Below are positions 4,001 through 62,821 of a DNA stretch of 64,000 nucleotides, piece by piece. Origin of the DNA: Marsupella aquatica (lineage: Eukaryota > Plantae > Marchantiophyta); the NCBI GenBank assembly GCA_973895155.1, contig OZ316894.1, positions 17,948,563 through 18,012,562 on the forward strand, given 5' to 3'. How positions within the stretch are numbered: position 1 is the stretch's first letter; each line of letters starts with the position of its first letter. A program made the translations under genes and the position numbers. Under the pieces are notes generated by a model. It did no database searches and was not told the origin of the DNA. It saw only the letters and a list, made by a program, of their open reading frames with translations.

Positions 4001-7000
4001 TCTATCGGTTTAGAAATGAATCCCAGAGTCTGATTCGGTCTCCGTCGGCTTTGAATTGAACTGATTGCGTTTGTTTGACTGATTGATTGGTTGATTGAGT
4101 GCAATCATCTTTACTTTTGCTATGACAAACGAAGGTTGTCTCGATTATGAGAACAGGATAGGGGAGCATCTGGAGAGGATATCATAGCAACTTACAGCAA
4201 GTATTTGATACGTTGCACATTTACTCAACAATCCACTCACTTCTCTCCGCAATTAGCTCACCAGGACATTACATATTAGTAAATGGGGTCGGGGGCTTGG
4301 TGCTGCAGGTGATGGCGCAGCAATTGGGGCTGAGTGTTGGGGCCGTGAAGCATGTGGGAGTTGATCGTGATTATCACGATGTGCTCTGGCTGGCCGATGT
4401 AGTTGTTTATGGATCGTTATGGGAAGAACTATCTTTTCCTCCAATTTTAATCCGGGCCATGACGTTGAAGCGTCCTCTTGTCGTTCCGAACCTCGATGTC
4501 ATAAGCCAACAGGTAAAGTTGTTACTCGATGGCCGTCAAATGCATTTAACATTTGAAATGAAGAAATTAGAATTGATCGGTGCCCTGGACCTCGGTTATA
4601 TCTAAAAGGTGAAAAGCCTTGCCAGCTAGGTGACACAAAATGGTAAATTGAGTGATATCTTGGAGCGCAGCTGAAAAACTTCTTAGGGCCCTCAACAGGT
4701 TGTAGATGGGAAGTCCGGCTTTATGTTTCCGGCTGGAGATGATCAAGCGCTGGGGCGAGTGCTCTTGATGGTCAAATCAAATCTGGTCCTGGCGCGGAAT
4801 GTTGCCTTCCAAGGTGCATCTCTTGCTCGCATCATGCTTGCTAGAGATGCAGTGGTCGACTACAGCTACCTATTGGAAAGAGTTTTAGAATTTCCTGGGG
4901 AAGCACAACTACCACGATCTACGGTTGAGATGCAGGAAGTTGTAGAGGAAGCGATACCAGAAGGTTGGCGATGGGATTTTTGGGGAGAGATTGAGACTGT
5001 CACAGCGACTGTGAAAGATCTGCTCTACCTGACGTCAGCTACTGATCTCAGATTTGTAGGCAACTCCTCGGTTATTGACTCGGGCAGGGAAGATCTGGAG
5101 TCCTCCGGGGACGACTTCGAGTTGCTGAACGAGAAAGACCTGTTTCAGGAGAAACAAGGAGAAGGGATCGTGACGTTAGAACTAGTGGAAAATGAAATGG
5201 TATCTGACTGAACTTGGTTACTGATTTTTATCTCCGGTTCCATATCTTACGATGACCTAAATGTTGCGCACCTTTCAATCCCAGGAATGATTTTCACTTC
5301 TATTTTGCAAAGGTCCGCTCCGTTGGCAAAGAATGGTCATTATCTCCCCTTGGTTTGACAGATTAGGGACAGACTCGAGAGGGTGGATACATCATTTGAG
5401 GAAGTCAACAAGATGGTCAAGAAGACGGAAACCCGAGTTGCTCAGGAAAAGCACCTAGAAATAGATAATTTGGAAGTTGAACGGGTTGCCCAACCTCTCT
5501 GTATATATGAACCGTACCACGGGTCGGGTGCCTGGTCCTTCTTGCATAGGGATCACCTACTCTATAGAGGTCTTAGCTTGGTACGTACTCTGGTGCCCCC
5601 CTCTATGTTCTTACTATCATTCAAGGCTATCTGTTATAAATTGGGTCACATATTTAGACGAGGTGCTTTGTTGACGCAACAGTATTTATTTGCTTTCGCT
5701 TTTAGGAATTACGATCGAGATCAAACATAGTTTGTCTGGACATCGACCATTCTTCGTTCAAGCCGTAAAGGACATTTCTTCTGGACGTACTTGCTGGCAG
5801 GGCGATGCTAAGGATTCATTATTGTAAACTTGTATCAAAAGGGTAAAAAGGAACGGAAAAAGGATTCATCATTGTGTGCTTTGGCCGACGTTTCAGTCAC
5901 CTTACGGGCGGAGACCATTACTTGATGATGTGGATGGAGGAAGTCGTCTTCGCCTCTTGAACGATTCTTACTACCGGGAAGTTCTTTGTGATGTTGCGGG
6001 GTTTTTCGCGATCGCGAAGCTCATCGATCGTGTGCACAGAAACCCGTGGATCGGATTTCAGCCTTGGCGTGCTGTAAGCAAAAAGGTTTGTTTGTTACCA
6101 ATCTAAGGTTGCAAATCCATATTGCTGTTTAATTTATAGAGGCTGGATCTAGGACGTTAGAGCATGACTACTATCTCAGTAAAACTGTCTGGGACGTCCG
6201 CGACAACACCCGTCTGGAGTGGGAACATTGAGTCAAGGCAGCACGCAAAAAGGTTTGTTTGTTACCAATCTAAGGTTGCAAATCCATATTGCTGTTTAAT
6301 TTATAGAGGCTGGATCTAGGACGTTAGAGCATGACTACTATCTCAGTAAAACTGTCTGGGACGTCCGCGACAACACCCGTCTGGAGTGGGAACATTGAGT
6401 CAAGGCCATGCTTACGCGAGCCTTGTCCAACTGTGCTACTTTTGACCCCAAACTCTCGTCTCAATGCAGTTGGCCCTAACAATGCCCGCAGAAGCAGCGT
6501 TATTGGCGGCTGTCGCGACAGAGCAGCACGGCGACGCTCTCTATTTCTGGGCACAACTGGAATCAAAGGACTCTCGGCCTGCTGATGACTTCTGGAATGC
6601 ATGCGATGTAGTCAATGCAGGAAACTGTAGGCATGTGGTCCAGTCATCCCTACGACCATTTTGCCAATGTTTTGCCATAAAATGACAGACGTGATTAGTA
6701 GTCTAGCAGGCCATTATCTGTAGCTCTATCAGGTCATACGCAACTTAGTCTGTCATTACTTTGCAAATTAATACTGAATTCGTAAACTAATATATCGATT
6801 GAACCGTGAGCTAATGTTGGTTTATTGTTGATGTTAAGCTGCAGGGGTGTTTTTTATGATACTTTCAAACAAATGTACGGCTTGCCATCAAATTGGACGC
6901 ATCTTCCGCCTATGCCAATAGATGGGGGTACATGGGCTGCAATGCATTGCTGGGCGATGCCTACCACGTCGTATTTGGAGTTTGTCATGTTTGCCAGGTA

Positions 7001-15045: not shown

Positions 15046-15416
15046 CCTCCAATGTATATCAGGAACTAACTTGGCTTTATTAATTAGATTTCTTGTACAG
15101 GATTTTGCACTTACATATTTGTTGTGTAAACGAGGGCTATTTGCACATATATGAAGAAGTGCAGAATGGTCGTGAGAAAACGGGAAGAACCGGACGCCAT
15201 CCAATTAGCCAGGTTATGCACTTATTGGCTGAACTATGTTCAGCTATGTGATGGCGGACCAAAAAGTCCCCCAAGGTACTTTTGTTGTTCAATACATACC
15301 AATACAATGGACTCCAATAGTGGACTTCTATATAATTTCTCTTGTTCTAAAGAGATCAAAACAAAATCCAATGTATTGTGTACAGTATTTATATTCAGGC
15401 CAGATCATGATGGCAA

Positions 15417-15891
15417 TGTTGGGTATTTACTCTTACGTCTAGGTTAGGTATGACGTGGTTGGTACAACAACGTGGGTTGGTACAACTACGTGGTTAGGTA
15501 CAACTACGTGATTAGGTACAACTATGTGGTTAGGTACAACTACGTGATTAGGTACAACTATGTGGTTAGGTACAACTACGTGATTAGGTACAACTATGTG
15601 GTTAGGTACAACTATGTGGTTAGGTACAACTAAGTTGCACACTATATCATAAGAGGCATGTGTGCTTGGAGAGGTAGAACCAAGGCTCATTGTTATGGAG
15701 CCACTTGAGAGATAGGGAGAGCTTACACTGTGGAGACTCGGTATAGCCGACGGGCTTAGAGTTCAGTAAAGCTCTCTTGTGTGTTCCCGTAGACGTAGCC
15801 TCAAGGAGGTGAACCACGTATCTCTTGTGTCGACTATTGTGCGTTGGATGGTTCATGGGCTTGCCGTTGCGATCGTCGTCTATACTCAACA
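15417..15891 (+). repeat. 5' LTR (475 bp)
   Basis: tgttgggtat...tactcaaca, direct repeat of 20632-21106. Confidence 0.97.
15453..15632 (+). repeat. 18-bp tandem array (10 units, GGTACAACTA(C/T)GTG(G/A)TTA) in the LTR U3; same array at 20668-20847
   Basis: ggtacaac recurs every 18 bp from 15461 to 15623. Confidence 0.95.
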
Positions 15892-15893
15892 AT

Positions 15894-15905
15894 TGGTATC
15901 AGAGC
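15894..15905 (+). other. Primer-binding site, tRNA-iMet type (TGGTATCAGAGC)
   Basis: Canonical copia PBS 2 nt downstream of the 5' LTR. Confidence 0.95.
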
Positions 15906-16325
15906 ATGCTTGGGAGGTGACGTGTGTTCGTGACGGGATTTCATTACGGTTTTTCCAGCGTTGAGTGTCGGTGGATTTCCTGGAGTTCCGTCGCATGGAA
16001 CTTGGAGTTTATGGGCTCAACGGATAGATCGGGGCAAGAGCTTTCTAACGGTGTGAAGAAATCGCTGAACGGAGCTCGTGGTGCAGAGAGATCTAAGTTT
16101 TCGTCATTCTGGATTTTGTGAAGAAAGTTGGCAATCGACTCGGAGGGAGAAGCGTCAAGTGTTTTGACTCAACGGAGAGATTGAGGCAAGACGATTGTTT
16201 TGAGTCCGGGATTGGCTCTTTGATGCAAAGAGGAAGAGCATGTGACACCGATACCATCACCGGTGCGGCGTGTGGTGGAGGAAGCAGTACTACTACCGGA
16301 GCTCACGGTAGTGCCAAAGAAGAAG

Positions 16326-17182
16326 ATGGGGACTTTCAAGCTTGGGGGACCCAAGTATGAAGTGACAAAGTATGATGGGCGCTCTGACTACTTGCTATGG
16401 GAGAAGCAGGTGAAGGGAGTGCTCTATGCGTCAGGGATGGGCCAACTGCTGAGCCCTCGTAAGACGATGTTGATGAGAAACAATGGGACCGCATGCAGGA
16501 GCAGGGAGTGTGGTGTGTTACACTCTATCTCATGCCTCCCATCATCAAGCAGTTGGGTGCACATAAGGATTGCATGTCCTTGTTTGCGGAATTGCAGAGC
16601 AAGTATCACAGCAAGGAGTTGTCGAACCGGCTCTACACTTCCTACAAACTCATGAGTTTCAGGATGAAGGAATCCGGTACAAAGTTGCAAGACCATGTGG
16701 ATGCTTTCAACGACATGGTCGTTGACTTGGAAAACCTTGGGGAGACTTTGAATGATGAGACGAAGGCTCTGCAGCTTCTTAGTTCATTGCCTCCATCTTA
16801 CCAGTCCCTATCACGAGTGTTGTTGCATCGTGATAGGGATACCATTTCATACAATGACGTGGTAAGTTCTCTGCTTAGTGATGATCTTCAGCAGAAGATG
16901 CACATCACATCACAGCCTTTATCATCTGGTGCTGCCCTCAATGTTAACCGTGGGAGGGGTATGCAGCGACCAACTGGGGACCGTAGAACCCAGTTTAGAT
17001 CTAAATCCAGATCTAAGTCCAAGGGTAAATCCCCTCAGAGGAGGCAGGTGACATGTTGGAAGTGCAACCAAGTTGGACACTTCAAGCGAGACTGTAAGGG
17101 AAAGGCAGCGGAAACTTCATCGGCAAATGTGGCTAGGGCTGATGGAGAAGCTGATTTACTCAATGATGAGTATGTTTTATGA
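16326..17182 (+). CDS. gag: Copia gag with CCHC zinc knuckle; frameshift near 16463
   Basis: MGTFKLGGPKYEVTKYDGRSDYLLWEKQVKGVL.. shifts frame into DVDEKQWDRMQEQG..LLSSLPPSY..CWKCNQVGHFKRDC. TGA at 17180-17182. Confidence 0.85.
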
Positions 17183-20100
17183 AGCCGGGTGTATGCCCTG
17201 TGCACGTCATCTAGGAGAGTAGATGATGTGTGGATTCTTGATTATGCTTGCTCTTTTCATATTTGTTACATTCGTGAGTTTTTCAGTTCTTACTCTATTT
17301 CAAACGGTTCAGTTCTGATGGGAAATGATCACTCCTGTCGAATTGAGGGAATTGGGTCTGTGAAGATTCAAATGTTTGATGGCGTTGTGCGCACAGTGTC
17401 CGGAGTCAGGTATGTACCTGGCATGCGTAAGAATCTGATTTCACTCGGTGTGTTGGATTCAAATGGTCATCAATGGAGCGTTATTGATGGTGAACTTCAA
17501 GTCAGGTCGGGAGAGACAGTGATTTTGAAGGGGAGTAGACAAAAGAATTTGTATGTGTTACAGGGCAATACTGTATGTGGAGAGGCCAATGTAACCAAGT
17601 CTCACGAGGAGATGACTCAACTGTGGCATTCACGGCTAGGCCACATGAGTGAGAAGGGTTTGGCTATCTTACGGAAGAATGGACTCATTTCTGATTTGCA
17701 ATCTTGTAAATTAGAGTTTTGTGAGCATTGCATTCTTGGAAAGCAGCATCGTCGTGCTTTTGGTGTTGGAACTCATCGTTCCAAAGCGGTTCTTGAGTAC
17801 ATACATAGTGACGTGTGGGGTCCATCCCCGACTCCCTCACACTTTGGAAAGTTGTACTATGTATCATTTATTGATGATTACTCAAGATTTGTGTGGATTT
17901 ATTTCATGACGCATAAGTCTGATGTCTTGTCCATTTTTAAGAAGTGGAAGGCCCAGGTGGAGAATCAGACTGGAAACACGATCAAGTGTTTGGATACAAG
18001 GGTGAAGAGTCTGAGGTCAGACAACGGCGGGGAGTACACTTCAATGGAATTTGAAGAGTACTGTTCAGAACAGGGGATAACTCGCCATCTCACCACAGTT
18101 TATACTCCGCAGCAGAATGGTGTCGCTGAGAGGCTCAATCGGACACTGTTGGAGCGGTCACGGAGTATGTTGAGCCAATCAGGTTTACCACAAGAATTTT
18201 GGGCAGAAGCTGTCAATACCGCAGCTTATTTGGTAAATCTTTCTCCTTCTAGTGCTATCAATTTCAAAACGCCGTTTGAGATGCGCTATAAGCGGCAAGC
18301 AGACTATCATGGCTTGGTAATTTTTGGAAGTGATGCATATGCTCTCACACCAAAGAAGAATAGGACCAAGTTGGATCCTACCTCCAGGAAATGTGTTTTT
18401 CTTGGGTACCAGAGTGGTGTGAAAGCCTATAGGCTATGGGATCCTATTGCCTGTAAGCTCGTTGTCAGTAGGGATGTTTCCTTCAATGAATCCAGATTAT
18501 TGAAGGAGGGGGAGAATACTCAGGTCTCCCGTACTGACAAAGGAAAATCTCCTATCCCGGATCTCGTTGAGGGGGAGATTGGTTATGAGGTGCATGACCG
18601 GAGAGAAGGAGTTGCTCCAATTATGGAGCTGGTTCCTGTGCCAGAGGAACCAGAGGAGTTTGTTGATGCTGGTGAGCAGCAAGTGGATGCTGTTGAGCTT
18701 CAAATTGTACCAGCACACGCAGATCAACCGGAGTCATCGGCTAGAAGAACATCTGGTCGCACTGTACGCGCTCCATCAAGGTATGGACAGTGGGTTGATT
18801 CATCTCAACTGCAAGAGGATGATTTTACAGCTGATGATGAGGGTGATGCGTTAATTTTGGAAGAAGGAGAACCTTCTTCATTTCATGAGGCAAGTGCTTC
18901 AAAGGAGAAGCAGAAGTGGACTGCAGCAATGCAAACGGAGATGCAGTCACTAAAGGACAACAAAACTTGGGAGCTTGTTAAGCTGCCTAAGGGTCAGCAA
19001 GTGGTGGACAGCAAGTGGATTTACAAGCTGAAGGATAATTCCATAGGAGGTGGATCGAAGGTCTACAAGGCTAGATTGGTAGCAAAGGGATTCACACAAG
19101 AGAAAGGTGTGGATTACAATGAGGTCTTCTCACCAGTTGCTAAGTACTCTACAATACGACTATTGTGTGTACTTGTTGTAATGTTTGGTCTGCTGCTAGA
19201 TCAGATGGATGTTGTCACAGCTTTCCTCTATGGCACATTGGAAGAGGTGATCTTCATGAGACAACCGCTAGGTTTTGTGAAGAGAGGACAGGAGGAATTG
19301 GTTTGCAGATTGCTGAAATCCTTGTATGGGTTGAAGCAGTCACCAAGACAATGGAACAAGCGGTTTGACGATTGGATTCGGTCACAAGGTTTTCACAGAA
19401 GTGTATTTGACCCTTGTGTGTATTTGAAACCGGTGAAGAATGTTGTCTTTGGGTTCATTGTTTTAGTACTTTATGTGGATGATATGCTAATTGCAGCCAA
19501 GGATAGGTCTGAGATTGTTAAGCTCAAGGCACTGCTTAGTGCAGAGTTTAAGATGAAGGACTTAGGGCCAGCTAAGAGGATTTTGGGTATGGAGATCACT
19601 AGGGACTTGGAGGCTGGCAAGCTATGGTTGACGCAGAAGGTAATTGCAAGGTTCAACATGGAGAATAGCAAGCCAGTAAGTACCCCGTTGGCTCCACACT
19701 TCAAGTTATCATCAGCGTTCTGTCCTACGGATGACACAGAGAAGGGGTTGATGTCAAAGGTTCCATATGACAAGGCAGTGGGGAGTCTCATGTATTTGAT
19801 GACTTGCACTAGACCTGATCTTGCCATGGCTATGGGCAAGGTGAGCAGGTACATGTCGAATCCAGGGAAGGTACACTGGGAAGCAGTGAAGTGGATTATC
19901 AGGTACTTGAAGGGTACCGTGGATCATGGTCTTTTATTTGATGCGAATGCAAAGAATGCTAGATCATTGATTGGCTATGTAGATTCTGACTATGGACAAG
20001 ATTTGGACCGAAGGAGATCAACAACAGGATACGTGTTCACACTTGGCGGTGGATGCATAAGTTGGAGGTCTACTTTGCAGAAGTGTATTGCTCAGTCTAC

Positions 20101-20440
20101 TACAGAAGCGGAGTATGTTGCAGCTGCGGAAGCAGCAAAGGAAGCGATTTGGTTGGATAGACTTATCACTGAAATGGGATTGCCACAGGAGAATGTGAAG
20201 CTCCATTGTGATAGTCAAAGTGCGCTCCACCTTGCTGTGAACCAGGTGATGGACAGCAGAGTGAAGCACATTGACGTCAGGTACCATTTTATCAGGCAGG
20301 CTGTGTCTGATAATTTGTTTGAGCTAGTCAAGATTGATGGTAAACTCAACCCGGTTGACGCATTTACCAAAGTGATTCCTTTGGAGAGTTTCTCTAGACA
20401 CCGTGACGTATTGCAGGTTTTGCAATTGCATCACAAGTAG
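17183..20440 (+). CDS. pol: Copia pol (protease, integrase, RT, RNaseH), in the same frame as gag behind one TGA
   Basis: WILDYACSFH (PR site), WHSRLGH..CEHC (IN HHCC), HSDVWGP / LRSDNGGEY / QQNGVAER (DDE), KARLVAKGF, LYVDDML (RT), YVDSDY..EAEY (RH). Confidence 0.93.
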   Translation, partial: SRVYALCTSSRRVDDVWILDYACSFHICYIREFFSSYSISNGSVLMGNDHSCRIEGIGSVKIQMFDGVVRTVSGVRYVPGMRKNLISLGVLDSNGHQWSVIDGELQVRSGETVILKGSRQKNLYVLQGNTVCGEANVTKSHEEMTQLWHSRLGHMSEKGLAILRKNGLISDLQSCKLEFCEHCILGKQHRRAFGVGTHRSKAVLEYIHSDVWGPSPTPSHFGKLYYVSFIDDYSRFVWIYFMTHKSDVLSIFKKWKAQVENQTGNTIKCLDTRVKSLRSDNGGEYTSMEFEEYCSEQGITRHLTTVYTPQQNGVAERLNRTLLERSRSMLSQSGLPQEFWAEAVNTAAYLVNLSPSSAINFKTPFEMRYKRQADYHGLVIFGSDAYALTPKKNRTKLDPTSRKCVFLGYQSGVKAYRLWDPIACKLVVSRDVSFNESRLLKEGENTQVSRTDKGKSPIPDLVEGEIGYEVHDRREGVAPIMELVPVPEEPEEFVDAGEQQVDAVELQIVPAHADQPESSARRTSGRTVRAPSRYGQWVDSSQLQEDDFTADDEGDALILEEGEPSSFHEASASKEKQKWTAAMQTEMQSLKDNKTWELVKLPKGQQVVDSKWIYKLKDNSIGGGSKVYKARLVAKGFTQEKGVDYNEVFSPVAKYSTIRLLCVLVVMFGLLLDQMDVVTAFLYGTLEEVIFMRQPLGFVKRGQEELVCRLLKSLYGLKQSPRQWNKRFDDWIRSQGFHRSVFDPCVYLKPVKNVVFGFIVLVLYVDDMLIAAKDRSEIVKLKALLSAEFKMKDLGPAKRILGMEITRDLEAGKLWLTQKVIARFNMENSKPVSTPLAPHFKLSSAFCPTDDTEKGLMSKVPYDKAVGSLMYLMTCTRPDLAMAMGKVSRYMSNPGKVHWEAVKWIIRYLKGTVDHGLLFDANAKNARSLIGYVDSDYGQDLDRRRSTTGYVFTLGGGCISWRSTLQKCIAQSTTEAEYVAAAEAAKEAIWLDRLITEMGLPQENVKLHCDSQSALHLAVNQVMDSRVKHIDVRYHFIRQAVSDNLFELVKIDGKLNPVDAFTKVIPLESFSRHRDVLQVLQLHHK

Positions 20441-20620
20441 AGTTTTCTTAAACATTCATTGTAATTACTGATATATGCTCTTCCTCATTCCTATGTATTA
20501 GGCTACGGCTTAGTTCTGGTTTGCTCTAGTTAGAGAGGGAAACCGGTTTGGTTTCTGTCCAGAACTTCCCGCTGAGGGATCATATACATTGGCAGTATTA
20601 CTCTCCCCTAGACCAGAGTC

Positions 20621-20630
20621 AAGGGGAAGA
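20621..20630 (+). other. Polypurine tract
   Basis: aaggggaaga immediately upstream of the 3' LTR. Confidence 0.85.
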
Positions 20631-20631
20631 T

Positions 20632-21106
20632 TGTTGGGTATTTACTCTTACGTCTAGGTTAGGTATGACGTGGTTGGTACAACAACGTGGGTTGGTACAA
20701 CTACGTGGTTAGGTACAACTACGTGATTAGGTACAACTATGTGGTTAGGTACAACTACGTGATTAGGTACAACTATGTGGTTAGGTACAACTACGTGATT
20801 AGGTACAACTATGTGGTTAGGTACAACTATGTGGTTAGGTACAACTAAGTTGCACACTATATCATAAGAGGCATGTGTGCTTGGAGAGGTAGAACCAAGG
20901 CTCATTGTTATGGAGCCACTTGAGAGATAGGGAGAGCTTACACTGTGGAGACTCGGTATAGCCGACGGGCTTAGAGTTCAGTAAAGCTCTCTTGTGTGTT
21001 CCCGTAGACGTAGCCTCAAGGAGGTGAACCACGTATCTCTTGTGTCGACTATTGTGCGTTGGATGGTTCATGGGCTTGCCGTTGCGATCGTCGTCTATGC
21101 TCAACA
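20632..21106 (+). repeat. 3' LTR (475 bp)
   Basis: Identical to the 5' LTR except an A/G difference (15884 vs 21099). Confidence 0.97.
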
Positions 21107-21433
21107 GGCAAGAGATGAGGAGAACACTTAATGCTTTGTCTTTTGTGTTTAGTTCATTCTTTTTTTTTTATTCACTTTGTTTGTCTTGGGCTAAGTATAT
21201 TTAATACTTGCTCTTTTAAGTTTTTTAATTTCAGCCTGATGTGACCAAACCCCCTTTGGTCACGGGCCTGGTGTATCTTGCACTTAGAAAGAGCCGACTG
21301 CACCGTATAACTCACAGTTCTTGGGTGACTACCGGTTGCTCAATTCAATTCTCCCCTTCCTCACCGTGTGACGAAGTAGTGCAAGTATTGGAGAAGAATT
21401 TGAAGCTCCCGAGAGCACCCAAGCAAAGGGAAA

Positions 21434-22587
21434 ATAGCGTGGAGGGGCAAGCTCGCGGAATCGCTCCAGGAGTTGCGCATCCATTTGTGCCAGACTTCTG
21501 CAGCCAGCAAGTCACTCGGTTTGAAGCCCATCCCTTCTCCTCAATGCAACTTAATTGAGATGTCGATCCAAATGGACCTACCTGCTGCTTTTCTCTCTTT
21601 GATGTTGCAGTCCGCCTTTCCTGATTGCTTTTGTGTCTAAATGCCCTTTCCTGGTTCTGTTTCTTTGTTCGCCTTTGGATACATGCTTGAATGCCGTCCT
21701 GCCACCTCTCTGGTCTCAGTCCCATCGACTCTCGGTTCTTTCGTTTTTGATTGTGAGCTTTACTATGTGCCATCGAAGCAACGGACTCGGTTCAGTTTCG
21801 TTTCCCTGATGAGATGAGTTACAAACGTGTTCACAGGGACTTCATTGTGAAGAATTACAAAGAGCTGAACACTCTGAACCCCCGGCTCCCAATACTAATT
21901 CGCGAGTGTAGTAGGATCCAACCTCGAATCTGGGCCCGTTACGGTATGTCATTCTTCCTACGATGAAAATCTCGCTTCATCGACCCTAGTCTCGTGCCTG
22001 ATTCATTTTCGCTGAGAACCAATATCCAGTCAATTGTCATGCTATACATTGCACAATTTAGGGGTTGGTGCTTTGCTCATTATGCCTAGGTATCTCACTT
22101 TTGGCTCTCTGCTCGTATGCATAGGTATTCTGTTGGCACTCTGTACAAAGTTAGGGTTTACAAATTGATCCTTTCTGGATCGCTCAGTAATGTTCCTACA
22201 AATGCAGTGGTCGGTTTTTGGTGGTATTGTACGAAATCTTTACGCTCTGCCAATTTCGTAGTGTGAAAATCCCACGACTGATAATTCGACTGCTGACAAT
22301 TTAAGGTTGAGGACGAGCTCCTTCACTTGCAATGTATTTGAATACAAAGATTGACTGATATTGGCAGGTTGTACAACTTGACGTGGAATCAAGGACCCTC
22401 TTTTGCGTTTTTGTCTTTCTTCTTTTGCACCGTTGTTCCCCGGATGTCCTGATTTCTTAAATTTTCATAATGTCCGGATTTCGCAGACTATGGAGTGGAG
22501 CGAAGTGTAGCTCTAGATGGCCTCACTGAGGCTGAAATTGATGCCAAGCTGAAGGAGTTAGCAGATGCTGGACCGAACTGCAAATAG
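21434..22587 (+). pseudogene. NDUFA2: NADH:ubiquinone oxidoreductase B8 subunit (NDUFA2), three exons, apparently disabled
   Basis: Exon 21434-21518: (ATA)AWRGKLAESLQELRIHLCQTSAAS... Exon 21837-21943: [35 protein letters not shown]. Exon 22487-22587: DYGVERSVALDGLTEAEIDAKLKELADAGPNCK*. The start codon position holds ATA, and exon 1 (85 nt) is one base short of the phase that exon 2 needs. Confidence 0.85.
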
Positions 22588-22984: not shown

Positions 22985-23450
22985 ATGTTTAGGGCGAGCG
23001 GGAGATTGAGCTATGGCGCATTGCAAGTTTCTGAGTGTTAGCGCATTCTCAATTTGGATCTTCCATACAGCTCGTCAGTCATCAGATTGTTTTCTTGTAA
23101 TGTGAAGGTGGTGGGAATGAGGCTTAGGGTTTAACACCTTAGACGCTACATAAATTTAGTTTCGGACAAAGAGTGTGGGAGAGGTCAGAGAATGCGTGCT
23201 AGAGAGCGTGGATTCTGTGATTCTGAACTTACATCGGACGAAATGAGAGTGGCTTGGTGACAAAAAAATTATCCGAAGACTGACACGATTGTAATTGGAT
23301 TTTGGCTTGTGGTGGGCAGACCGTGTTTAGTATCCTCTCGTTCCCTAAAAGAAGGTGAACATATTCTGAGGGTTCCGAATTCGGCACGGATAAAATTGCA
23401 TCGACAGTTCAGGTCAATAAATGCCTGGCTTTGCGCTTCTGCCACAGTGG
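22985..23450 (+). pseudogene. Putative organellar targeting-peptide exons of the PPR gene, with in-frame stops
   Basis: ATG 22985 MFRASGRLSYGALQVSEC*RIL.. is in the same frame as exon 23320-23450, whose GTAAGT donor (phase 1) fits the PDF exon at 24183. Stops: TAG 23039, TAA 23132, and TGA at 23258 or at the splice junction. Confidence 0.55.
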
Positions 23451-24182
23451 GTAAGTATTTTCTTTCTCAGCATTTATTTGCAAAACTCAACTTATCTGAG
23501 TAGCAATTAGAACCAAAATTTGGAAATCAATTCAATATAACGTCCCTTTTATTGTGGACTTCCTCCATGTGATGGACGAGTTCTTTAACATCCTTGTTTG
23601 AATCACACCATTTGAATCGTTTCCCGTCTGCTTCGTGTTTCACCTGGTCAGCGTGATTGACCTAACTTCTTATTGTAAGTTATGCCGACCACGTAGATGA
23701 ACCAGATCTGTCCATACTTGAGCGTTGGCTGATCTAAACTGCATTGAAGCACAGTCAAAGATGTCTTCTATAACTTAAAATCTTAAACAAAAACTAAAAG
23801 GAAGGTTTTCCATTCCAAGATACGGCAGAGGTCGAGACTTGGGGTGTAAAATGGTGAACTGAATTTTCAGAACCAGCTATCAAGCGGATTCACAGTTAGG
23901 GCCTAATTGTTGGAAAAGAGAACGATAGAGTAGCTCAATCTGTTATGTGGAGATCATTGAATGTTGAAGTAGGCATGGGACAACAAAGGGCAATGCCTAC
24001 GCGCGGTAGAAACTCTAGAACCTGAATGTACTGTAATTCTGGAGAGGAATAGCTTTTAGATAACGAATTGTGCCAAATGCTACATTTCGAGTCCCGATCT
24101 GGGTTTTCTGGATTGGACTTTGACATAAACAGCGCCGGGTGAGGTCATAATATTTATCAGCAGTTCTTGTGGTTGTTGCCAG

Positions 24183-26756
24183 GCCCGAAAAAGACTGTGA
24201 AGCAACTTTGGCTAGAGTTCTTTTCAGATCCTTCTCAGTGGTGGGATCATAGATTGGAGAAGGTAAACATCAATATGTACCACAGCTTCTCTGTGATTAT
24301 CTCTTACAACATAACGGATCACGAAAGTATTTTTCTCTCTCTACGACATTAGATGGAAAGCATTCTTCTGGTAGTGAAACGTTTATCCAGGATGTCAATT
24401 TCGGGATTTGCTCCTCCATTCTGACGGCTTGGGTTGCACTGCGCCATGAGCAGTTCAGGTATATAATCCGGATCTTGTTGTCCTTTCACAGGGAAATGTT
24501 AGGTATCCAGATTTCAAACATAAGAAGACACAAGAGGGTCTATGGCTGGGCAGCAAATCCAACCCTTCATGGGTGGAAACAGGGCTGGCTGCAATGGCAC
24601 CAGGTGCTGTCCAGTCAAACATATATTCATGGAACAGAAGGCTGGCTAGGATTGTGAAAGCTGGGCAATATGTGGAAGCCATAGAACTTTTCCGCCGAAT
24701 GCAAGTGGAGGGCATGAGTCCAGACAGTTATAGTTTCGTGCAAGTTATCAACGCATGTGCTAGCCTAGGTGATCTTGAAGAAGGCAGAAGGATTCATACA
24801 CAGATAATTCAGAGTTGTCTGGATCCGGATGTTTTTGTGAATAACAGTCTGATTGACATGTATGCCAAATGTGGGAGGATGGAGGACTCCTGCAGAGTGT
24901 TCAACGAGATGGCCAAGCGGGACGTGGTCTCTTGGAACACCTTAATTCTGGGATATGTAAAATGTGGTCAAGGGCAGAAGGCATTGGAACTTTATGAATG
25001 GATGCAACGTGAGCAGGTTGAGCCAGTTTGCGTCACCTTTGTGGGCCTGCTCAATGCATGTGCTAGTTTAGGTGCACTTAAAGAAGGCAGGATTATCCAT
25101 AAACAGGTCAGTGAAAGAGGTATTGAATTTGATGTCTTTGTGAGTAGTTGCTTGGTTGACATGTATGCAAAATGCGGGAGCATAGTAGAGGCTCAGAGAG
25201 TGTTCAACACTATGCCCCAACGCAATGTGGTTGCTTGGACTGCCATGATTCGGGGCCTAGTGAAATGTGGGCAAGGGCATAAGGCCTTGGAATTATCTAG
25301 TATCATGCAGCACGAAGGGGTGGAACCTGATGCTGGTGCCTATGTGGGCATGCTGAATGCATGTGCAAGTGCCGGTGCGCTAGGCGAAGGCAGGCATGTC
25401 CACGACCAAGTCATTCGAAATGGTTTTGAGTGTGACGTGTTCGTGGGCAGCTGCCTGGTGGACATGTATGCAAAATGTGGGAGCATAGAAGACGCTCAAA
25501 GAGTCTTCAACAAGATGCCCACTCGGAATGTGGTTGCTTGGACTGCCATGATTCAGGGGCTAGTAAAGTGCGGGCAAGGGCAGAGAGCGTTGGATCTATG
25601 TCGAGCGATGCAGCAGGAAGGGGTGGAGCCCGATGCTGTGACCTTGGTGGGCATGCTAAATGCATGTGCAAGCGTAGGAGCTCTGGAAGAAGGCAGACTT
25701 GTGCATCAGCAGATCGTCAAGAAGGGGGTTGAATGTGACGTTTTTCTGGGTAGTGGCCTCATTAACATGTACGCCAAATGTGGGAGCATTGAGGATGCCC
25801 TCAAAGTGTTCAATGAACTGCCAGTGCACAATTTGGTTGCTTGGACTGCTATGCTGGGAGGGTATGCCATGCATGGCTATGCAGCAGAAGCGCTTGAACA
25901 TTTCCAACAAATGTGCCAAGCAGGTGTAAAGCCGGATGGGGTAACTTTCATTTCTCTTCTGTCAGCATGTAGCCATCGGGGTCTAGTCGATGAAGGCCTG
26001 CACCATTTTGAATCCATGAGTTTAGTTTATGGTATTTCTGCGGAGGTGGAGCACTACGCCTGCATGGTTGACCTCCTTGGTCGTGCTGGGCATTTGCTTG
26101 AGGCAGAGAATATGATCAGGATGATGTCCTGTGAACCAGATGCAACTGTGTGGATGTCATTGGCCAGCACTTGCAGACTTCATGGTGACTTGGAGATGGG
26201 AGAACGTGCTGCGAAGCAACTTTTGAAATTGGAACCTGAAAATACTGGAGCGTATGTGCTCCTAGCAAACATTTATGCTGCTGCTGGCAAGTGGGACAGC
26301 AGTACAGCCGTTCATCAAGAGAGGTTGTTGAAGTGTAAGAATAAACAACCAGGACGCACCTGGATTGAGATTAATAGTGAGGTGCATAGCTTCACAATCG
26401 ATGACCGTGAGCATCCTCAGATTGGGGAAATCCATGCAGAACTGACTAGACTGCATGGGCTAATGATTGAAGCGGGGTATAAGGCAGATACCACCGTCGC
26501 ATTGCATGATGTTGAAGAAGATGAAAAGACGCTCCACTTAAGTCGCCATAGTGAGAAACTGGCAATTGCCTTTGGGATCATAAGTACACCCCCTGGCACT
26601 CCACTCCGCATTTTCAAGAATATGCGTGTGTGCGGTGACTGTCACTCTGCTACCAAATTGATTGGAAAGATAACTAGGAGGACAATTGTAGTAAGGGATG
26701 CCAATCGCTTTCATCACTTTCACGGTGGTCATTGTTCTTGCAAGGATTATTGGTGA
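24183..26756 (+). CDS. PLS-class PPR-E1-E2-DYW protein (C-to-U editing factor type) with an N-terminal OSB-like PDF motif
   Basis: Exons 24183-24262 and 24492-26756. Four P1-L1-S1 triplets plus P2-L2-S2, E1, E2, PG box (KQPGRTWIE), HSEK and CGDCH zinc-deaminase motifs, terminal CSCKDYW*. The N-terminal part reads LWLEFFSDPSQWWDHRLEK|GNVRYPDFKHKKTQEGLWL..NPSWV. Confidence 0.95.
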
Positions 26757-31448: not shown

Positions 31449-34393
31449 TGTGAGGAATTGACTTGAGTTCCCAACTTAGTTAGTTTGGCCTTACTAGGGT
31501 TAGTTAACCTTGGATTACATTAGGATAAGATCCATTTAGTTTAGGTCCACTCATCTTGGCCCCCTTGGGGGGTATAGGGTGGAGGGAGAGCTCTCTCTCC
31601 CTCATTCTTCACATGTACTCTCATTTGCTATGGAGCCTTCAGGAGTTTCTCCACTCAGGATGTCTCGTCGGTGTCGCATCTGTGAGTATCTCTCATGTTT
31701 CCGCATTGTTATCTAGTCTGGAGCCGACGGTTTCTTACAAGTGGTATCAAAGCTTTGTGTTCGTGGTTCGGTGGTCTGGGCAATGATGAGAGCACTCGTG
31801 TGTTGGATTGTGGTGGAAGATTGAGTCGTCATTGACAATTGTTTGTCCTCAGGTCTCATTGTTAATAGGTTGTTGAGGCAAAAGGGCTATAAATTGTGGG
31901 ATCCTGTTGATTGTAGGGCATTTGTAAGCAAAAATGTTGTTTTTGACAAAAAATGGTTGTCAAGACCCCAGGATATTTAGGAGGACCAGGTGGAGGAACC
32001 CACTACGATGGAGCTTGGTGGTGATGAGGAAGCTACTGGTCCCTCTGGTAGAAGTGCAGTTCCTCAACCAAGGCGCTCCATCAGGGCCAATTTTGGCCAA
32101 CCCCTTGATAGATTTGGTTTTGTAGATCCTCGTGTTCACGTTGTTGAGCATGACAATCATCCCGGTGTTGTTTTGCTCACTGAAGATGGAGACCCATCTA
32201 GCTATGAAGAAGCTATGGCCTCTCCAGAGAAGGATAAGTGGATGGAGGAAATGTTGAAGGAGATGAATTCTTTGAAGAAGAATTCCACTTGGCGCTTGAC
32301 TGACATGCCTCACGGGCTCGGGGGGTCACTATATGAAGGGTCATACATCACGTGCAACGGTTTGGGTCATTTATGACCCCCCTAAGTCACTTTCTAGAAA
32401 GTTGTACGGCACCACTCATGTGATGACACGTATGCATTTTGCAATTAAACAACCCTATATTTCGATAGAAGACTTAATAAGTCTTCCGCCAAAACCATTT
32501 AAATGGCCCTATACTTCGTCGCACATGATATGCCACTTCCATGGAAGTGACCCCTCGAGCTCACGGGAAGACACTGGTTCCATGTAGATGGCTGTACAAG
32601 AAAAAGCTGGATGGCACTTACAAGGCACGCCTTGTGGCCAAAGGGTACACCTAGTTCAAGGAGGACTTGGACTACACAGAGATATTCTCACCAGTTGTCA
32701 AACTTGCTAATATTCGTATTTTATCTATGATTGTGGCATTCTATGAACTTGAGTTAGATCAAATGGATGTAATTACTGCTTTCCTACATGGATTGCTTGA
32801 TGTGGAGATTTATATGACTTAGCCTTCAGGTTTTATTGACGAGAAGACCAGTCACTTAGTGTGTAAGCTCTTGCGCTCGTTATACGGATTGAAGCAGAGT
32901 CCCAGACAGTGGAATAAGCATTTTGATTCCTTCATGTTGTCTCAGGGATTCACACGGAGTGAACATGATTGTTGTATTTACATGAAGGAGGTGGAGAATT
33001 ACTCACGCTTTGGTTACATTGTGCTGACATTGTATGTGGATGACATGTTGATCTTGGCTGAGAATAAGTCTGATGTTGCTCATCTGAAAGCAATGCTTAG
33101 TAAAAAGTTTTCAATGAAGGACTTGGGTCAAGCCAAAAAGATTCTAGGGATGGAGATTCATCGTGATAGGGAGTAGAGGCAATTATGGTTGTCTTAGAGG
33201 CAGTATTTGGAGAATGTACTTGCCAAATATAGAATGGAGAATGCAAAACCAGTTGGTACTCGATTGGCTTCCCACTTTAAACTCTCAAAGAATGATTGCC
33301 CTTCTAGTGAGAGTGATAGATTGGTGATGAAACATGTTCCCTATGATAGTGTTGTGGGTAGTTTGATGTATGCGATGACATGCACTAGACCTGACATCCC
33401 GCCTAACATTGCCCATGTTGTTAGAATTTTGAGCACATTTATGACAAATCCTGGTAAGTTTCACTGGGAAGCAGTGAAGTGGATTTTGCGGTATTTGAAA
33501 GGTACCTTAGATTGTGGGATGTTATTTGACAGTAAAGCAGACTCTACATTAGAGTTTAAAGGTTTTGTAGATTCAGATTATGCTGGTAACTTGGATAACA
33601 GGAAGTCTACTACAGGCTATGTGTTTATGTTGGGTGGAGGTTGTATTAGCTGGAAGTCGGCAACTCAATCCTATGTTGCATTGTCTACTACTGAGGCTGA
33701 GTACATGGCTACCTGTGAGGCAACCAAGGAGCTGATCTGGCTACGAAGATTGGTGAGTGATCTGGGTCTTTCACCTGAAAAACCGGTGCTGCTATGTGAC
33801 AGTCAAAGTGCTTCAAATGCATCTAGCTAAGAACCCTGTATTCCATGCTAAGACAAAGCACATTGATATTCGTTATCACTTCATCCGTGAGGTGATTGAG
33901 ACAAAGCAAATATATCTGTAGAAGGTAGCTTCAGAGGAGAATGTGGCAGACATGCTTACCAAAGTTTTACCTACTACTAGCTTTAGTCATTATGTGGATA
34001 TTATTAATGTTAGGGCCCAATTGGAGACTATGTAGATATGTTACTTAGTTACATATTGTATATCACCTGACTCATTGTGTGAACTAGAGTCAAGGTGGAG
34101 ATTGTTAGGAATTGACTTGAGTTCTTGACTTAGTTAGTTTGGCCTTACTAGGGTTAGTTAACCCTGGATTACATTAGGATAAGATTTGCTTAGTTTAGGC
34201 TCACTCATCTTGGCGCCCTTGGGGGGTATAGGGTGGAGGGAGAGCTCTCTCTCCCTCATTCTTCATGTGTACTCTCATTTGCTATGGAGCCTTCAGGAGT
34301 TTCTCCACTCGGGGTGTCTCGTCTGTGTAGCATCTGTGAGTATCTATCATGTTTTTGCATTGCTGTCTAGTTTGGAGCCGACGGTTTCTTACA
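31449..34393 (+). mobile_element. Older, internally deleted Ty1/copia of a second family (non-autonomous)
   Basis: 291-bp LTRs (31449-31739, 34103-34393) with about 24 mismatches by eye, mostly transitions. PBS tggtatcaaagc at 31742, PPT aaggtggaga, flanks GAAAT / AAAAT. No gag, PR or IN core; IN C-terminal remnant (KGYKLWDP) and RT/RH with stops (LYVDDML, FVDSDYAG, EAEY). Confidence 0.93.
32317..32559. mobile_element. 243-bp MITE inserted in the copia RT
   Basis: TIRs CTCGGGGGGTCACT / AGTGACCCCTCGAG (13/14 match) and 8-bp TSD CTCACGGG (32309-32316 / 32560-32567). Removing it restores NSTWRLTDMPHGKTLVPCRWLYKKK..KARLVAKGY. Confidence 0.9.
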
Positions 34394-34599
34394 AAAATGT
34401 TGCCCAATTGCACCACAATTGCACCAATGCTGTCTGCAACTCTAGCACTATAGATACTTCTGCCGCATCTCGATCCCTTCACCTCAAGTGCCAATCCCAG
34501 ACTCAAAATGACCACCCCGCCGCAATCTTTCTGTTGAGCCTTAGCACTTCACATTTCTTCCCCCGAGCCAAGCATGACGTTGAGAAACCCGTTTCAGTC

Positions 34600-35372
34600 A
34601 TGAACAAAACCAGAAACAACTTTATCACTCATACCATCACACTTGGTTCACCCTTTGCAACAAAAGAGATACCCGGGGAGATACCTAAACAACCAATTTT
34701 GCTCGATCTACAATTTGAGCTATAGCATGCAACGCCTCAGGCACCGCAAAGCTCACATCGTCAAGAAAACAATCTCAGATCCCTTCCACAAAACCGTCAA
34801 ACACGAAAAAATCCAAAACAACAAGAAATTTGATTTTGCCACACCACAAACTCCTATCAATGATTTCTAAGCACCGTTGGAAAGCCCTTGCCCCGATCTA
34901 TTCGTTGAGCCAACACCTTCAAATTCCATGCAACGGAACCCTGTGAAATCTTTCAACACTAATCACTAGAAAAAATCGTCACAAACACATCACAAAAAAT
35001 CTTATCATCACTCCCAGACTTGCTTTTATATCAATTTGTTGAAGTTCTATGATGTCCTCCCTGATAATACAATCATGACTCATTCCATACTCACGTAGTC
35101 AACACAATCCATACGTGGTTCATCTCTTCTCCAAAGCTACATCCACACGAACATGAAAGCTTTATTTCAAGAGTAGTCTCCACACACGAGCTCTCTCTCT
35201 CTCTCTCAAAGTCGCTTCGTTACAATGAGCAAGCATTATGTACCAGCCACTGACACTAGCCTTGGTATATACAAGGTCACACATGACTAACCTAACCTCA
35301 GGTAAGTCCCTAACTGCGGTTAGCCTAATTGTCGTAATCTATGAGTCACAAGACTTAGAGCAATCATTAACA
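34600..35372 (-). mobile_element. Truncated 5' end (LTR 35037-35372, degenerate PBS, leader) of a copia related to the young element
   Basis: 34871-34960 is the reverse complement of the 15960-16055 leader (ccgttggaaagcccttgccccgatctattcgttgagcc). The PBS-like gcttttatatca sits 3 nt from the LTR end. Confidence 0.75.
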
Positions 35373-46103: not shown

Positions 46104-46782
46104 CCCGGTTTGACCTTGCCCGTCAAACTGGCCAAAAATCGTCGGCAAATCGGCAACCCGGCACCCGGGTTCGGGAGCAGTCCGGGCCGGGACAAGTTCG
46201 GGAGACATTCGGGCCGGGTTCGGGCGAGGTTTGGGGGAGGTCGGGGGAGTTCGGGGGAGTTCAGGCGAGGGGGAGTTCGGGTTCGGGGGAGTCTGGGCCG
46301 GGTTCGGGGGAGTTTGGGCAAGGTTCGGGGGACCGGGAGTTCAGGGTAGGTCGGGGGAGTTCGGGGGAGGGTCGGGGGTGTTTCGGGGGAGTTCGGGGGA
46401 GGGTCGGGGGAGTTTCGGGGGAGTTTCGGGGGAGTTCGGGGGAGGGTCGGGGGAGTTCGGGGGAGTTCGGGAAGGGTCCGGGTTCGGGTCCGGGGGAGTC
46501 CGGGACTCTAAACCCCGCCCTCCTTCCCCCAGCCCCGACCCCAGACCCGGCCCCGGCTGGCTGCCACCCCGAACCGGGGTCCGGGGGAGTCCGGGTTCGG
46601 GTCTGGGGGAGTCCGGGAAGGGTCCGGGTGAGTTCGGGAGGAGTCCGGGAAGGGTCCGGGGGAGTCCGGGTGAGTTCGGGAGAATATTGTGGAATATCCG
46701 TCAAATTGGTCATTTTCGAGCCGTCATTTGACAGTTTGACGTGCCCGGCAAGCCGTCAACTTGCCCGTCAGGTTAAACCGGG
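46104..46782. mobile_element. 679-bp non-autonomous TIR element filled with a G-rich satellite
   Basis: TIRs CCCGGTTTGACCT / AGGTTAAACCGGG (12/13 match) and perfect 8-bp TSD CGTTTACC (46096-46103 / 46783-46790). The interior is made of GGGGAGTTCG-like units. Confidence 0.88.
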
Positions 46783-60519: not shown

Positions 60520-62821
60520 ATGCCCAGCAAGGCCGTTCTGCTTCTCGTTGGCGACTATGTCGAGGATTATGAGGTTCTGCACTTCTCTCTGCTAATTGGA
60601 TTGAATTTCAGTCTTTTCATGCATTTGATCTTGGAGAGTTATACTTCTCAGTTACCTCATCCGTAAGATAGAGTGGATTCGAGACGATGTAGAGCAATTT
60701 CGGGCCTGGAAGGCTTTCCAACAGATTGTTTGTTTCATCCCCAGAAATTAGGGACCCGTCGAGCTGTCTCATTACATCGGAGATTTGAGGGTATAGCCAT
60801 TTCCCAGGATGATAAAGAAAATCGAAGCGTTTAAAGCCTGGAAGAAATCGTTTACGGCGAGGGTGCTTAAAATTGCAACCCTGATATTCGTTCGTTGCTT
60901 GATTTTCTTTGGTCCTTTCAGGTGATGGTGCCTTTCCAGGCATTACAAGCGTTCGGAGTGAAAGTTGACGCCGTCTGCCCTGGCAAGAAAGCCGGTGAAA
61001 GTATAGCAACAGCTGTTCATGACTTCCTTGGCCATAAGGTCCGCATTGCAATGATGGTCTCTTAAATCATTGATGTAGGAGATTTTAGCTCCTAGTCTTC
61101 TCAATTTTGCTGTGGTGAAGATGAAACTTCGATGTTGTGATACCTCACATATATCTGTTTGGAGTGGTTTTCGATTTGACAGACACCTCAGTAATTCATA
61201 TTTTGCTCGCTTTCTGGTCAGAACATTGCTAAAGTGACATACTTGCTGCATTACATATTGCACGGGCTAGTAGATACAGTGACTGATCTTCTGAGATGCC
61301 ATTGTTTTCTGGTTTACAATTTGTAGACTTACTCCGAATCGCCTGGACACAACTTTGTCTTGAACGCCACATTCGACAACATAGATGCGGACCGCTATGA
61401 CGCTTTGGTTGTACCTGGTGGGCGAGCTCCAGAGTACTTGTCCTTGAACGAGAAGGTTCTCAAAGTGGTGCAGAAGTTTGCATCTGCAAACAAACCCGTG
61501 GCCTCAATTTGTCACGGACCGCTCATCCTTGCTGCTGCTGGAGTGCTGAAGGGAAAGCAATGTACAGCCTACCCGACTTTGAAACCTACTGTGCTTGCTG
61601 CAGGAGGCAAGTGGCTGGACCCGGAGCCAATCTCAGCCAGTTTCACGGATGGAAACCTGATTACTGCTGCTGCCTGGCCCGGACACCCAGAATTCCTCAA
61701 GCAAATTCTTACAGCACTTGGATCGAAAATTGTGGGGGAAGACAAGAAAGTCCTGTTTATCTGTGGGGTGCGATGCGATGCCAGTCAATTGCCCTTTTCT
61801 GTTATGTCATCCATGGGTTTGAGCTGAGTGAAATCTGTTATGAATTCACACATGTGATTGTGGATGACCAAATAATTGTCAAGGAGGATGTTCTACAGAT
61901 ATGTGGCATCTGTTGTAGTCTGGCTCGGCGAACATTACGGATTCTTGACTATTTTCAGTCGATGGATTTCTAAATTGGCTGTTATTCCCGGTGGGAATTG
62001 TGCTCAGGACTACATGGAGGATTATGAGGTGATGGTCCCCTTCCAGTCTTTGTTGGCTCTTGGCTACACTGTGGATGCTGTGTCTCCCGACAAAACAGAA
62101 GGAGAGACATGCCCAACTGCAATTCACGACTTCGAGGGTGCCCAGACTTATAGTGAAAAACCTGGTCACAATTTTGTTTTGACGGCTACCTTTGATCAAA
62201 TCAAAGTGGAAGAGTATGATGCTCTTGTCATACCAGGTGGCCGAGCTCCTAAGTACCTTGCTCTTGACGATGCTGTTTTGTCACTCGTCCATCACTTTGT
62301 CGCTGCTGACAAACCTATTGCTTCCATCTGCCATGGACAGCAAATACTTGCTGCAGCGGGTGTGCTTAAGGTGAATTTTTGTTACATGTTTAGGTGGTTT
62401 GTTCTTCACTGTGAGTTGATGCAGGAACCTTTCTTTGGTTGTGCAGACGTATTAAGTACATTAAATGAAGCGATTAGTGTCAACAATTCCAGTGGTGTTC
62501 TATGAATAGCCAGGTTTAGAATTCTGGATGATAGCTTATTTAAAAGCGATGTGCTAGTCTGCAAGAGGAAATCCTACGTGCTCATTTTCAACATTGAATT
62601 CTGATCACGTTCGTATTGTGTGTGGGAATCAGGGAAAGAAATGCACTGCATACCCAGCAGTAAAACCCCAGCTATTGCTGGCAGGAGCACAATGGTTAAA
62701 CCCGGAACCCGTTACTAAATGTTTTACTGACGGAAAGCTTGTTACTGGTGCTGCATGGCCTGCTCATCCGGAATTTGTGGCACAATTAGTAGAATTGTTG
62801 GGTACCAAGATATCATTCTAG
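60520..62821 (+). CDS. DJ1D: DJ-1/PfpI family two-domain protein, DJ-1D / glyoxalase III type (387 aa)
   Basis: Five GT-AG exons (60520-60573, 60922-61038, 61327-61767, 62008-62370, 62633-62821) total 1164 nt. Two repeats of [33 protein letters not shown]. Confidence 0.96.

Follow-up and report, generated by a model that had tools for sequence, protein, structure and literature searches.

The window, by which we mean the whole stretch of 64,000 nucleotides of Marsupella aquatica DNA that was analysed, contains a gene that appears to encode a PPR-DYW editing factor with a PDF motif placed ahead of its repeats (Table 1). The segments 24183-24262 and 24492-26756, once joined, form a single 780-codon frame that ends with DYW and a stop at 26756, and the two remaining frames of the joined exons are closed by 46 and 60 stops. 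AG precedes both 24183 and 24492 and GT follows 24262, which are canonical splice sites. An earlier note on this DNA had joined the two exons in phase. The open frame and the canonical sites uphold that part of its two-exon model, which lacked an upstream exon ending at 23450.

Table 1. Features of the window and the evidence for each (X1, presumed RNA contigs of a relative; X2, a DNA run)
Feature	Position	Strand	Evidence or remark
Upstream coding exon, likely part of organelle targeting peptide	23320..23450	+	X1 contig; phase-1 GT donor 23451
GT-AG intron, phase 1	23451..24182	+	skipped in one X1 contig
80-nt exon, PDF motif first half (from 24206)	24183..24262	+	frame; OSB-only profile, 28.9 bits alone
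229-nt GT-AG intron, phase 0, interrupting the PDF motif	24263..24491	+	skipped in 2 X1 contigs, 0 in X2
PDF motif second half (Pro-Asp-Phe at 24507)	24492..24575	+	frame; OSB-only profile, 32.2 bits alone
Linker, 19 residues from last motif Trp to first repeat Trp	24576..24620	+	spacing shared with relatives
15 PLS-class PPR repeats, (P1-L1-S1)x4-P2-L2-S2	24621..26141	+	Pfam PPR families; repeat parse
E1 and E2 motifs	26142..26345	+	PF20431; repeat parse
DYW cytidine deaminase domain, ends DYW + stop	26346..26756	+	PF14432, E 4.5e-41; PDB 9kfx alignment
DYW domain landmarks	PG box 26349; HSE 26547; Met at base-stacking position 26622; CxxC 26631	+	alignment; parse
Complex I subunit B8/NDUFA2-like gene	21434-22587	+	PF05047
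Copia-type LTR retrotransposon (gag, integrase, reverse transcriptase)	about 15410-21107	+	18-nt tandem array per LTR; one in-frame stop at about 17180
Second copia-like reverse transcriptase, fragments	32823-34725	+	
DJ-1/PfpI family coding sequence, two frames	61327-62505	+	
Glycosyltransferase group 1	4162-4605	+	weak match, E 0.002
G-rich arrays, units 10-11 nt	46217-46681		

Five sequencing runs cover the stretch wholly or partly, none of them recorded as RNA; X1, presumed to be RNA, is a single run of assembled contigs from another, related organism, and its best contigs are about 87-95% alike to the window. The joint 24262|24492 (GT..AG ends), for which an RNA check had been proposed in the earlier note, is present in two X1 contigs and absent from the DNA run X2, in which one contig spans both introns. 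Another join, seen in one X1 contig, connects the upstream exon to the 80-nt exon: the contig aligns over 23315-23451 and continues at 24188, with four letters between, and the phase-1 donor at 23451 fits the next exon. Paralogous motifs cross the same junction in three more X1 contigs, and paralogous motif exons are present in contigs of the DNA runs. The B8/NDUFA2-like gene directly upstream of the PDF-PPR gene looks broken, with ATA at the expected start and its first two exons one base short of frame, and spliced transcripts of B8/NDUFA2-like genes are present in X1. The Copia-type element has 474 of 475 aligned LTR bases identical, which points to a young insertion.

The repeat parse gives (P1-L1-S1)x4-P2-L2-S2, that is 15 repeats, followed by E1, E2 and a 136-aa DYW domain, and the last exon matches the PPR, E-motif and DYW families of Pfam, in agreement with the 15 PLS repeats and E1/E2 described earlier. 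Fold searches match solved PPR structures to the repeats. The C-terminal 307 residues align to the consensus editor PDB 9kfx (E 4.4e-170) over the whole E1-E2-DYW part, with identical counterparts of His542, Ser543, Glu544, Cys570 and Cys573 as well as of the interface residues named in PMC13324415; the second zinc site and the terminal DYW are also present. The position equivalent to Leu567, which stacks on the target base (PMC13324415), is Met, and Leu is found there in 48 of 49 parsed relatives. The earlier description of the DYW domain as intact holds for the His, the Glu and both Cys, and needs a qualification at the base-stacking position. Under the PPR code, N/D stands for U, S/N for A and T/D for G; applied to the window's repeats, this code predicts the target U-n-U-Y-n-A-G-n-A-G-n-A-G, from -18 to -6.

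The upstream exon is rich in Arg and Ser and is joined by splicing in X1, and a start codon was not found in the window search: there is no in-frame ATG in 23320-23450, a TGA lies in frame at 23258, and the 54 single-intron models tried for the 5' end all lack convincing splice sites. These observations suggest that the window's copy may be decaying and may yield no imported active protein, a possibility we hold as somewhat doubtful and which is compatible with the other readings considered below. The Met at the base-stacking position, where Ala is described as abolishing editing in OTP86, and the broken look of the adjacent B8/NDUFA2-like gene point the same way, as do 17 listed amino-acid differences from X1, a partial and biased list in which X1 is nearer the family at 11 and the window at 5. 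Against decay stand 2265 bases of open frame, the presence of all zinc ligands, the canonical splice sites and the conservative nature of a Leu to Met change. Moreover, the orthologue in the relative is spliced, and it extends a further 458 bases 5' of 23315, where the start could lie. The result for the PDF-PPR family is independent of whether this copy decays.

The identity of the N-terminal motif was examined with profiles built from either side. A first profile, made from 28 aligned motif stretches that all came from PPR proteins, recovered 613 proteins among 6689 candidates, and its best 120 contain proteins named OSB1, OSB2 and OSB3 together with PPR proteins. The reverse profile, made from 50 copies in 18 named OSBs only, scores the spliced motif at 70.2 bits and its separate halves at 29 and 32 bits, well above the best unrelated score of 10.6 bits in six frames of the window; there is a mild circularity in this score, as the named OSBs had come via the PPR-derived profile. 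Across 262 OB-fused copies, 14 columns are fixed to 90% or more, and the window motif retains every one of them. These columns, among them three basic and four Trp positions, are also kept by 95% or more of 145 PPR-fused copies. Judged by its sequence, the spliced N-terminal motif is the OSB PDF motif, as the earlier note had recognised, and the OSB-profile check proposed there gave the same answer.

OSB1-OSB4, which Zaegel et al. 2006 are said to have described as organellar ssDNA-binding proteins, have in common with the window's protein a motif of about 50 residues with 14 strongly conserved columns. They differ in having an OB-fold-like domain followed by a C-terminal and often repeated PDF motif, whereas the predicted product of the window's gene has a single N-terminal PDF motif followed by PPR, E and DYW parts. 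An OSB N-terminal profile gives nothing above 5 bits for the OB-fold-like part in six frames of the window, and the combination of OB, PDF and PPR occurs in none of 349 proteins. Because the predicted gene product has no OB-fold-like part, we do not class it as an OSB. No Pfam model of the motif was found (best E 0.008, in one of 28 sequences), a PDB sequence search with the motif returned nothing (best E 0.73), and the ESM Atlas yielded no usable match. Residues 1-45 of the last exon, used as a query, produced two candidates and no match. A narrow pattern passed for one of 19 matches in prokaryote genomes and for none of 11 in viral contigs; the lone prokaryote match was taken as chance because its PDF half is missing and it scores only 11 bits.

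AlphaFold2 predicts the motif alone as a helix, short strands and a helix, with a pLDDT of 80.5 (blocks 66-88). When four repeats are included the pLDDT is 89 and the pTM 0.70 (motif blocks 79-94), a model that fits a docked and a floating motif alike. Fold searches with the motif gave no match (best E 4.6; other best Z 3.6, rmsd 3.3, 55 aligned), which is not proof of a new fold.

Residues 1-260 of the last exon, a region that includes half the motif, served to select 7108 homologues, of which the best 120 were analysed. Among these 120 the motif is present in 66, with a DYW domain in 24 and without one in 42, some being partial sequences; it is absent from the other 54, many of which are partial. 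By source name it occurs, within the best 120, in Sphagnum (16/20), Calypogeia (5/6), Diphasiastrum (25/38) and ferns (1/6), in none of eight gymnosperm proteins and in 19 of 42 that are unnamed. The nearest named proteins are in a near tie between Sphagnum, Calypogeia and Diphasiastrum, and the comparison places the host among the non-seed plants, likely the mosses or liverworts. The spacing of 19 residues between motif and repeats is found in 15 of 16 Sphagnum and 4 of 5 Calypogeia members and in 5 of the 24 measured from Diphasiastrum, while the N-terminal peptides of motif-bearing relatives vary freely in length and sequence. Members from Diphasiastrum and ferns have two or three PDF copies in tandem, separated by long linkers in the manner of OSBs.

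Of 391 matches to the search pattern in metagenome contigs, 297 are relatives. The best 80 loci, many of them redundant, comprise 70 with in-frame repeats behind the motif, nine of these with a DYW domain, and 10 that show no repeats, mostly in short or cut frames. An intron splits the motif in 11 of the 80, and in all five examined, one per type, its site and phase are those of the window. The motif was found in 1278 clusters at the 50% level; under a ranking that favours multi-copy proteins, 127 new identifiers divide into 58 with OB and PDF, 63 with PDF only, a class that includes fragments, and six with PDF and PPR. On the sequences compared, the architecture is that of a large family spread over several lineages of non-seed plants, and the earlier treatment of it as a rarity does not stand. 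A number of loci (L040, L048, L056, L064, L065, L072 and others) have short frames or stops soon behind the motif, as would be expected if the PDF-PPR family contains many dead copies.

Constraint was estimated from the same 80 loci, of which 23 passed a gap-free register filter and 13 were left once near-copies had been removed. For these 13 paralogs the motif has a dN of 0.137, a dS of 1.46 and a dN/dS of 0.09 (bootstrap 0.04-0.17), or 0.135 when the codons of the search pattern are excluded. The first repeat triplet has a dN of 0.170, a dS of 0.52 and a dN/dS of 0.33 (0.25-0.44), a contrast with the motif that is inflated by the dS of 1.46 and by the choice of loci through their motif score. 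For these two reasons the safe statement is that the rate of change in the motif does not exceed that in the repeats. A tree of 116 copies includes 56 that are PPR-fused, of which 52 group together (SH-aLRT 84), and a topology with a single clade of PPR-fused copies is not rejected (p-AU 0.69, 46 columns). The tree is thus compatible with one old PDF-PPR fusion, short of proof. It is likely that the fusion is old and was multiplied along with the PPR family in non-seed plants. Two PPR proteins, P0232 and P0166, have three and two PDF copies, and the tree places those of P0232 among OSB copies, which hints that fusion may have happened a second time.

We favour, as an evenly balanced judgement, an interpretation of the protein as an organellar C-to-U editor in which the PDF motif would act as a non-catalytic, sequence-independent single-strand anchor. 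The three exons would be spliced together, as is visible in the presumed RNA contigs of the relative, and the N-terminal peptide, to judge by the paralogs, would direct import into mitochondria or plastids. As is established for the family, the repeats would read about 15 bases 5' of the cytidine that the DYW domain deaminates. The PDF motif would form a small domain fixed to the first repeat and may bind single strands as it does in OSBs. The PDF motif of OSB1 alone is enough for ssDNA binding (PMC6963530), which favours an RNA editor with a sequence-independent anchor. Also in support are the 14 of 14 OSB columns, the low motif dN/dS, the fixed 19-residue spacing in moss and liverwort members, the predicted fold (pLDDT 80-94) and the presence of the catalytic and interface residues of 9kfx. 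Successive PPR repeats along the protein contact their target in the 5' to 3' direction (PMC13041630), with the edited C four bases beyond S2 (PMC13324415), so the motif would sit about 18 bases 5' of the edited site, a position from which it could not easily pass substrate to the active site.

As the ligand of the motif, ssDNA is slightly favoured ahead of RNA. OSB2 binds ssDNA at about 10 nM (PMC6451138), a nanomolar affinity of multi-motif tetramers that a single motif may not match, and mitochondrial R-loops are described as the site of OSB1 action (PMC8330923). If the ligand is ssDNA, the anchor would keep the editor at nucleoids or transcription sites, and tethering to nucleoid ssDNA is plausible; if it is RNA, the anchor would grip the transcript 5' of the repeat-bound stretch. 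Against the anchor, Physcomitrium DYW editors that lack most of their N-terminus are still active in E. coli (PMC6397227), and a consensus PPR-DYW protein edits with no such motif (PMC13324415). The PDF motif would thus be dispensable for editing as such. Also weighing against it are the 54 motif-less proteins among the best 120, many of them partial, and, for this copy, the start codon that was not found and the Met at the base-stacking position. More speculatively, and with the balance leaning against it, early land plants may have built many of their editors on an OSB-derived ssDNA-binding domain that docked to nucleoid DNA or R-loops and coupled C-to-U editing to transcription without MORF, a module then lost in seed plants as multi-protein editosomes arose.

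The motif could instead be a structural cap or protein-contact module that stabilises the first repeats or recruits partners, perhaps taking over part of the role of MORF proteins in seed plants, which we consider unlikely. The 19-residue spacing is fixed across moss, liverwort and some clubmoss members, the motif is predicted more confidently in context (blocks 79-94) than alone (66-88), and it occurs in lineages that are MORF-less according to PMC13386178 and in none of the eight gymnosperm matches among the best 120. Against such a role, every residue shared with ssDNA-binding OSB copies is kept, and Diphasiastrum and fern members have OSB-like tandem copies and long linkers. Less probable still is that the motif is a passenger, derived from OSB 5' exons captured for their targeting peptide and spread by PPR expansion. 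Apart from one tandem gene fusion, its place is always behind the N-terminal peptide and ahead of the repeats, many relatives are without it, and PPR expansion by retroposition copies entire transcripts (PMC13386178); however, motif dN is not above that of the repeats, and the residues and spacing are invariant in moss, liverwort and clubmoss members whose N-terminal peptides vary freely. That the protein deaminates cytidine in single-stranded organelle DNA with its repeats as guide, as the earlier note had also considered, is very improbable: a designer P-type PPR does bind ssDNA with the same code at lower affinity (PMC13041630) and one bacterial DYW-family deaminase acts on DNA (PMC11789416), but E1-E2-DYW matches the RNA editor 9kfx over its entire length, 15 repeats separate the motif from the active site, 42 of the 66 motif-bearing relatives in the best 120 of 7108 show no DYW domain (some are partial), and hundreds of such genes would presumably be mutagenic.

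Among known proteins the closest are the PPR-DYW editors of the PG type, for example PPR56 and PPR65 of Physcomitrium and the consensus protein 9kfx. With these the window's protein shares the order (P1-L1-S1)n-P2-L2-S2-E1-E2-DYW at canonical lengths, the PG box, HxE, CxxC and the DYW end; it differs in the PDF motif between N-terminal peptide and first repeat and in Met for Leu567. The PDF motif is not among the additional domains that PMC9459714 lists for Physcomitrium PPRs. RRM-PPR and MORF-PPR fusions likewise have an extra nucleic-acid or partner-binding domain on a PPR array. A survey of 364 genomes (PMC13386178) reports fusions with RRM, MORF and OZ, in most cases with small numbers in each lineage, and mentions neither 'PDF' nor 'OSB'; in contrast, the PDF-PPR architecture is found in a large part of the PLS relatives that were examined. 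In an OSB survey (PMC13393729) only proteins with OB and PDF were kept, and 'PPR' does not occur there. Full-text searches of the literature returned no description of a PDF-PPR fusion, which accords with the earlier statement that this architecture had no known functional description.

With no Pfam model, no solved relative and surveys that require OB together with PDF, a domain that a large part of the editing factors of mosses, liverworts and clubmosses carry may have gone unnoticed. If DNA anchoring is true, organellar editing would be tied to transcription and to the upkeep of the genome. The PDF motif may also serve as an affinity module for designer PPR editors. Beyond the PPR and OSB proteins, six proteins (P0224, P0229, P0121, P0122, P0225 and P0226) are made up of PDF motifs repeated many times in tandem; neither an OB nor a PPR part was detected in them, and two of them bear dinoflagellate names (Effrenium, Cladocopium), beyond the range reported for OSBs.
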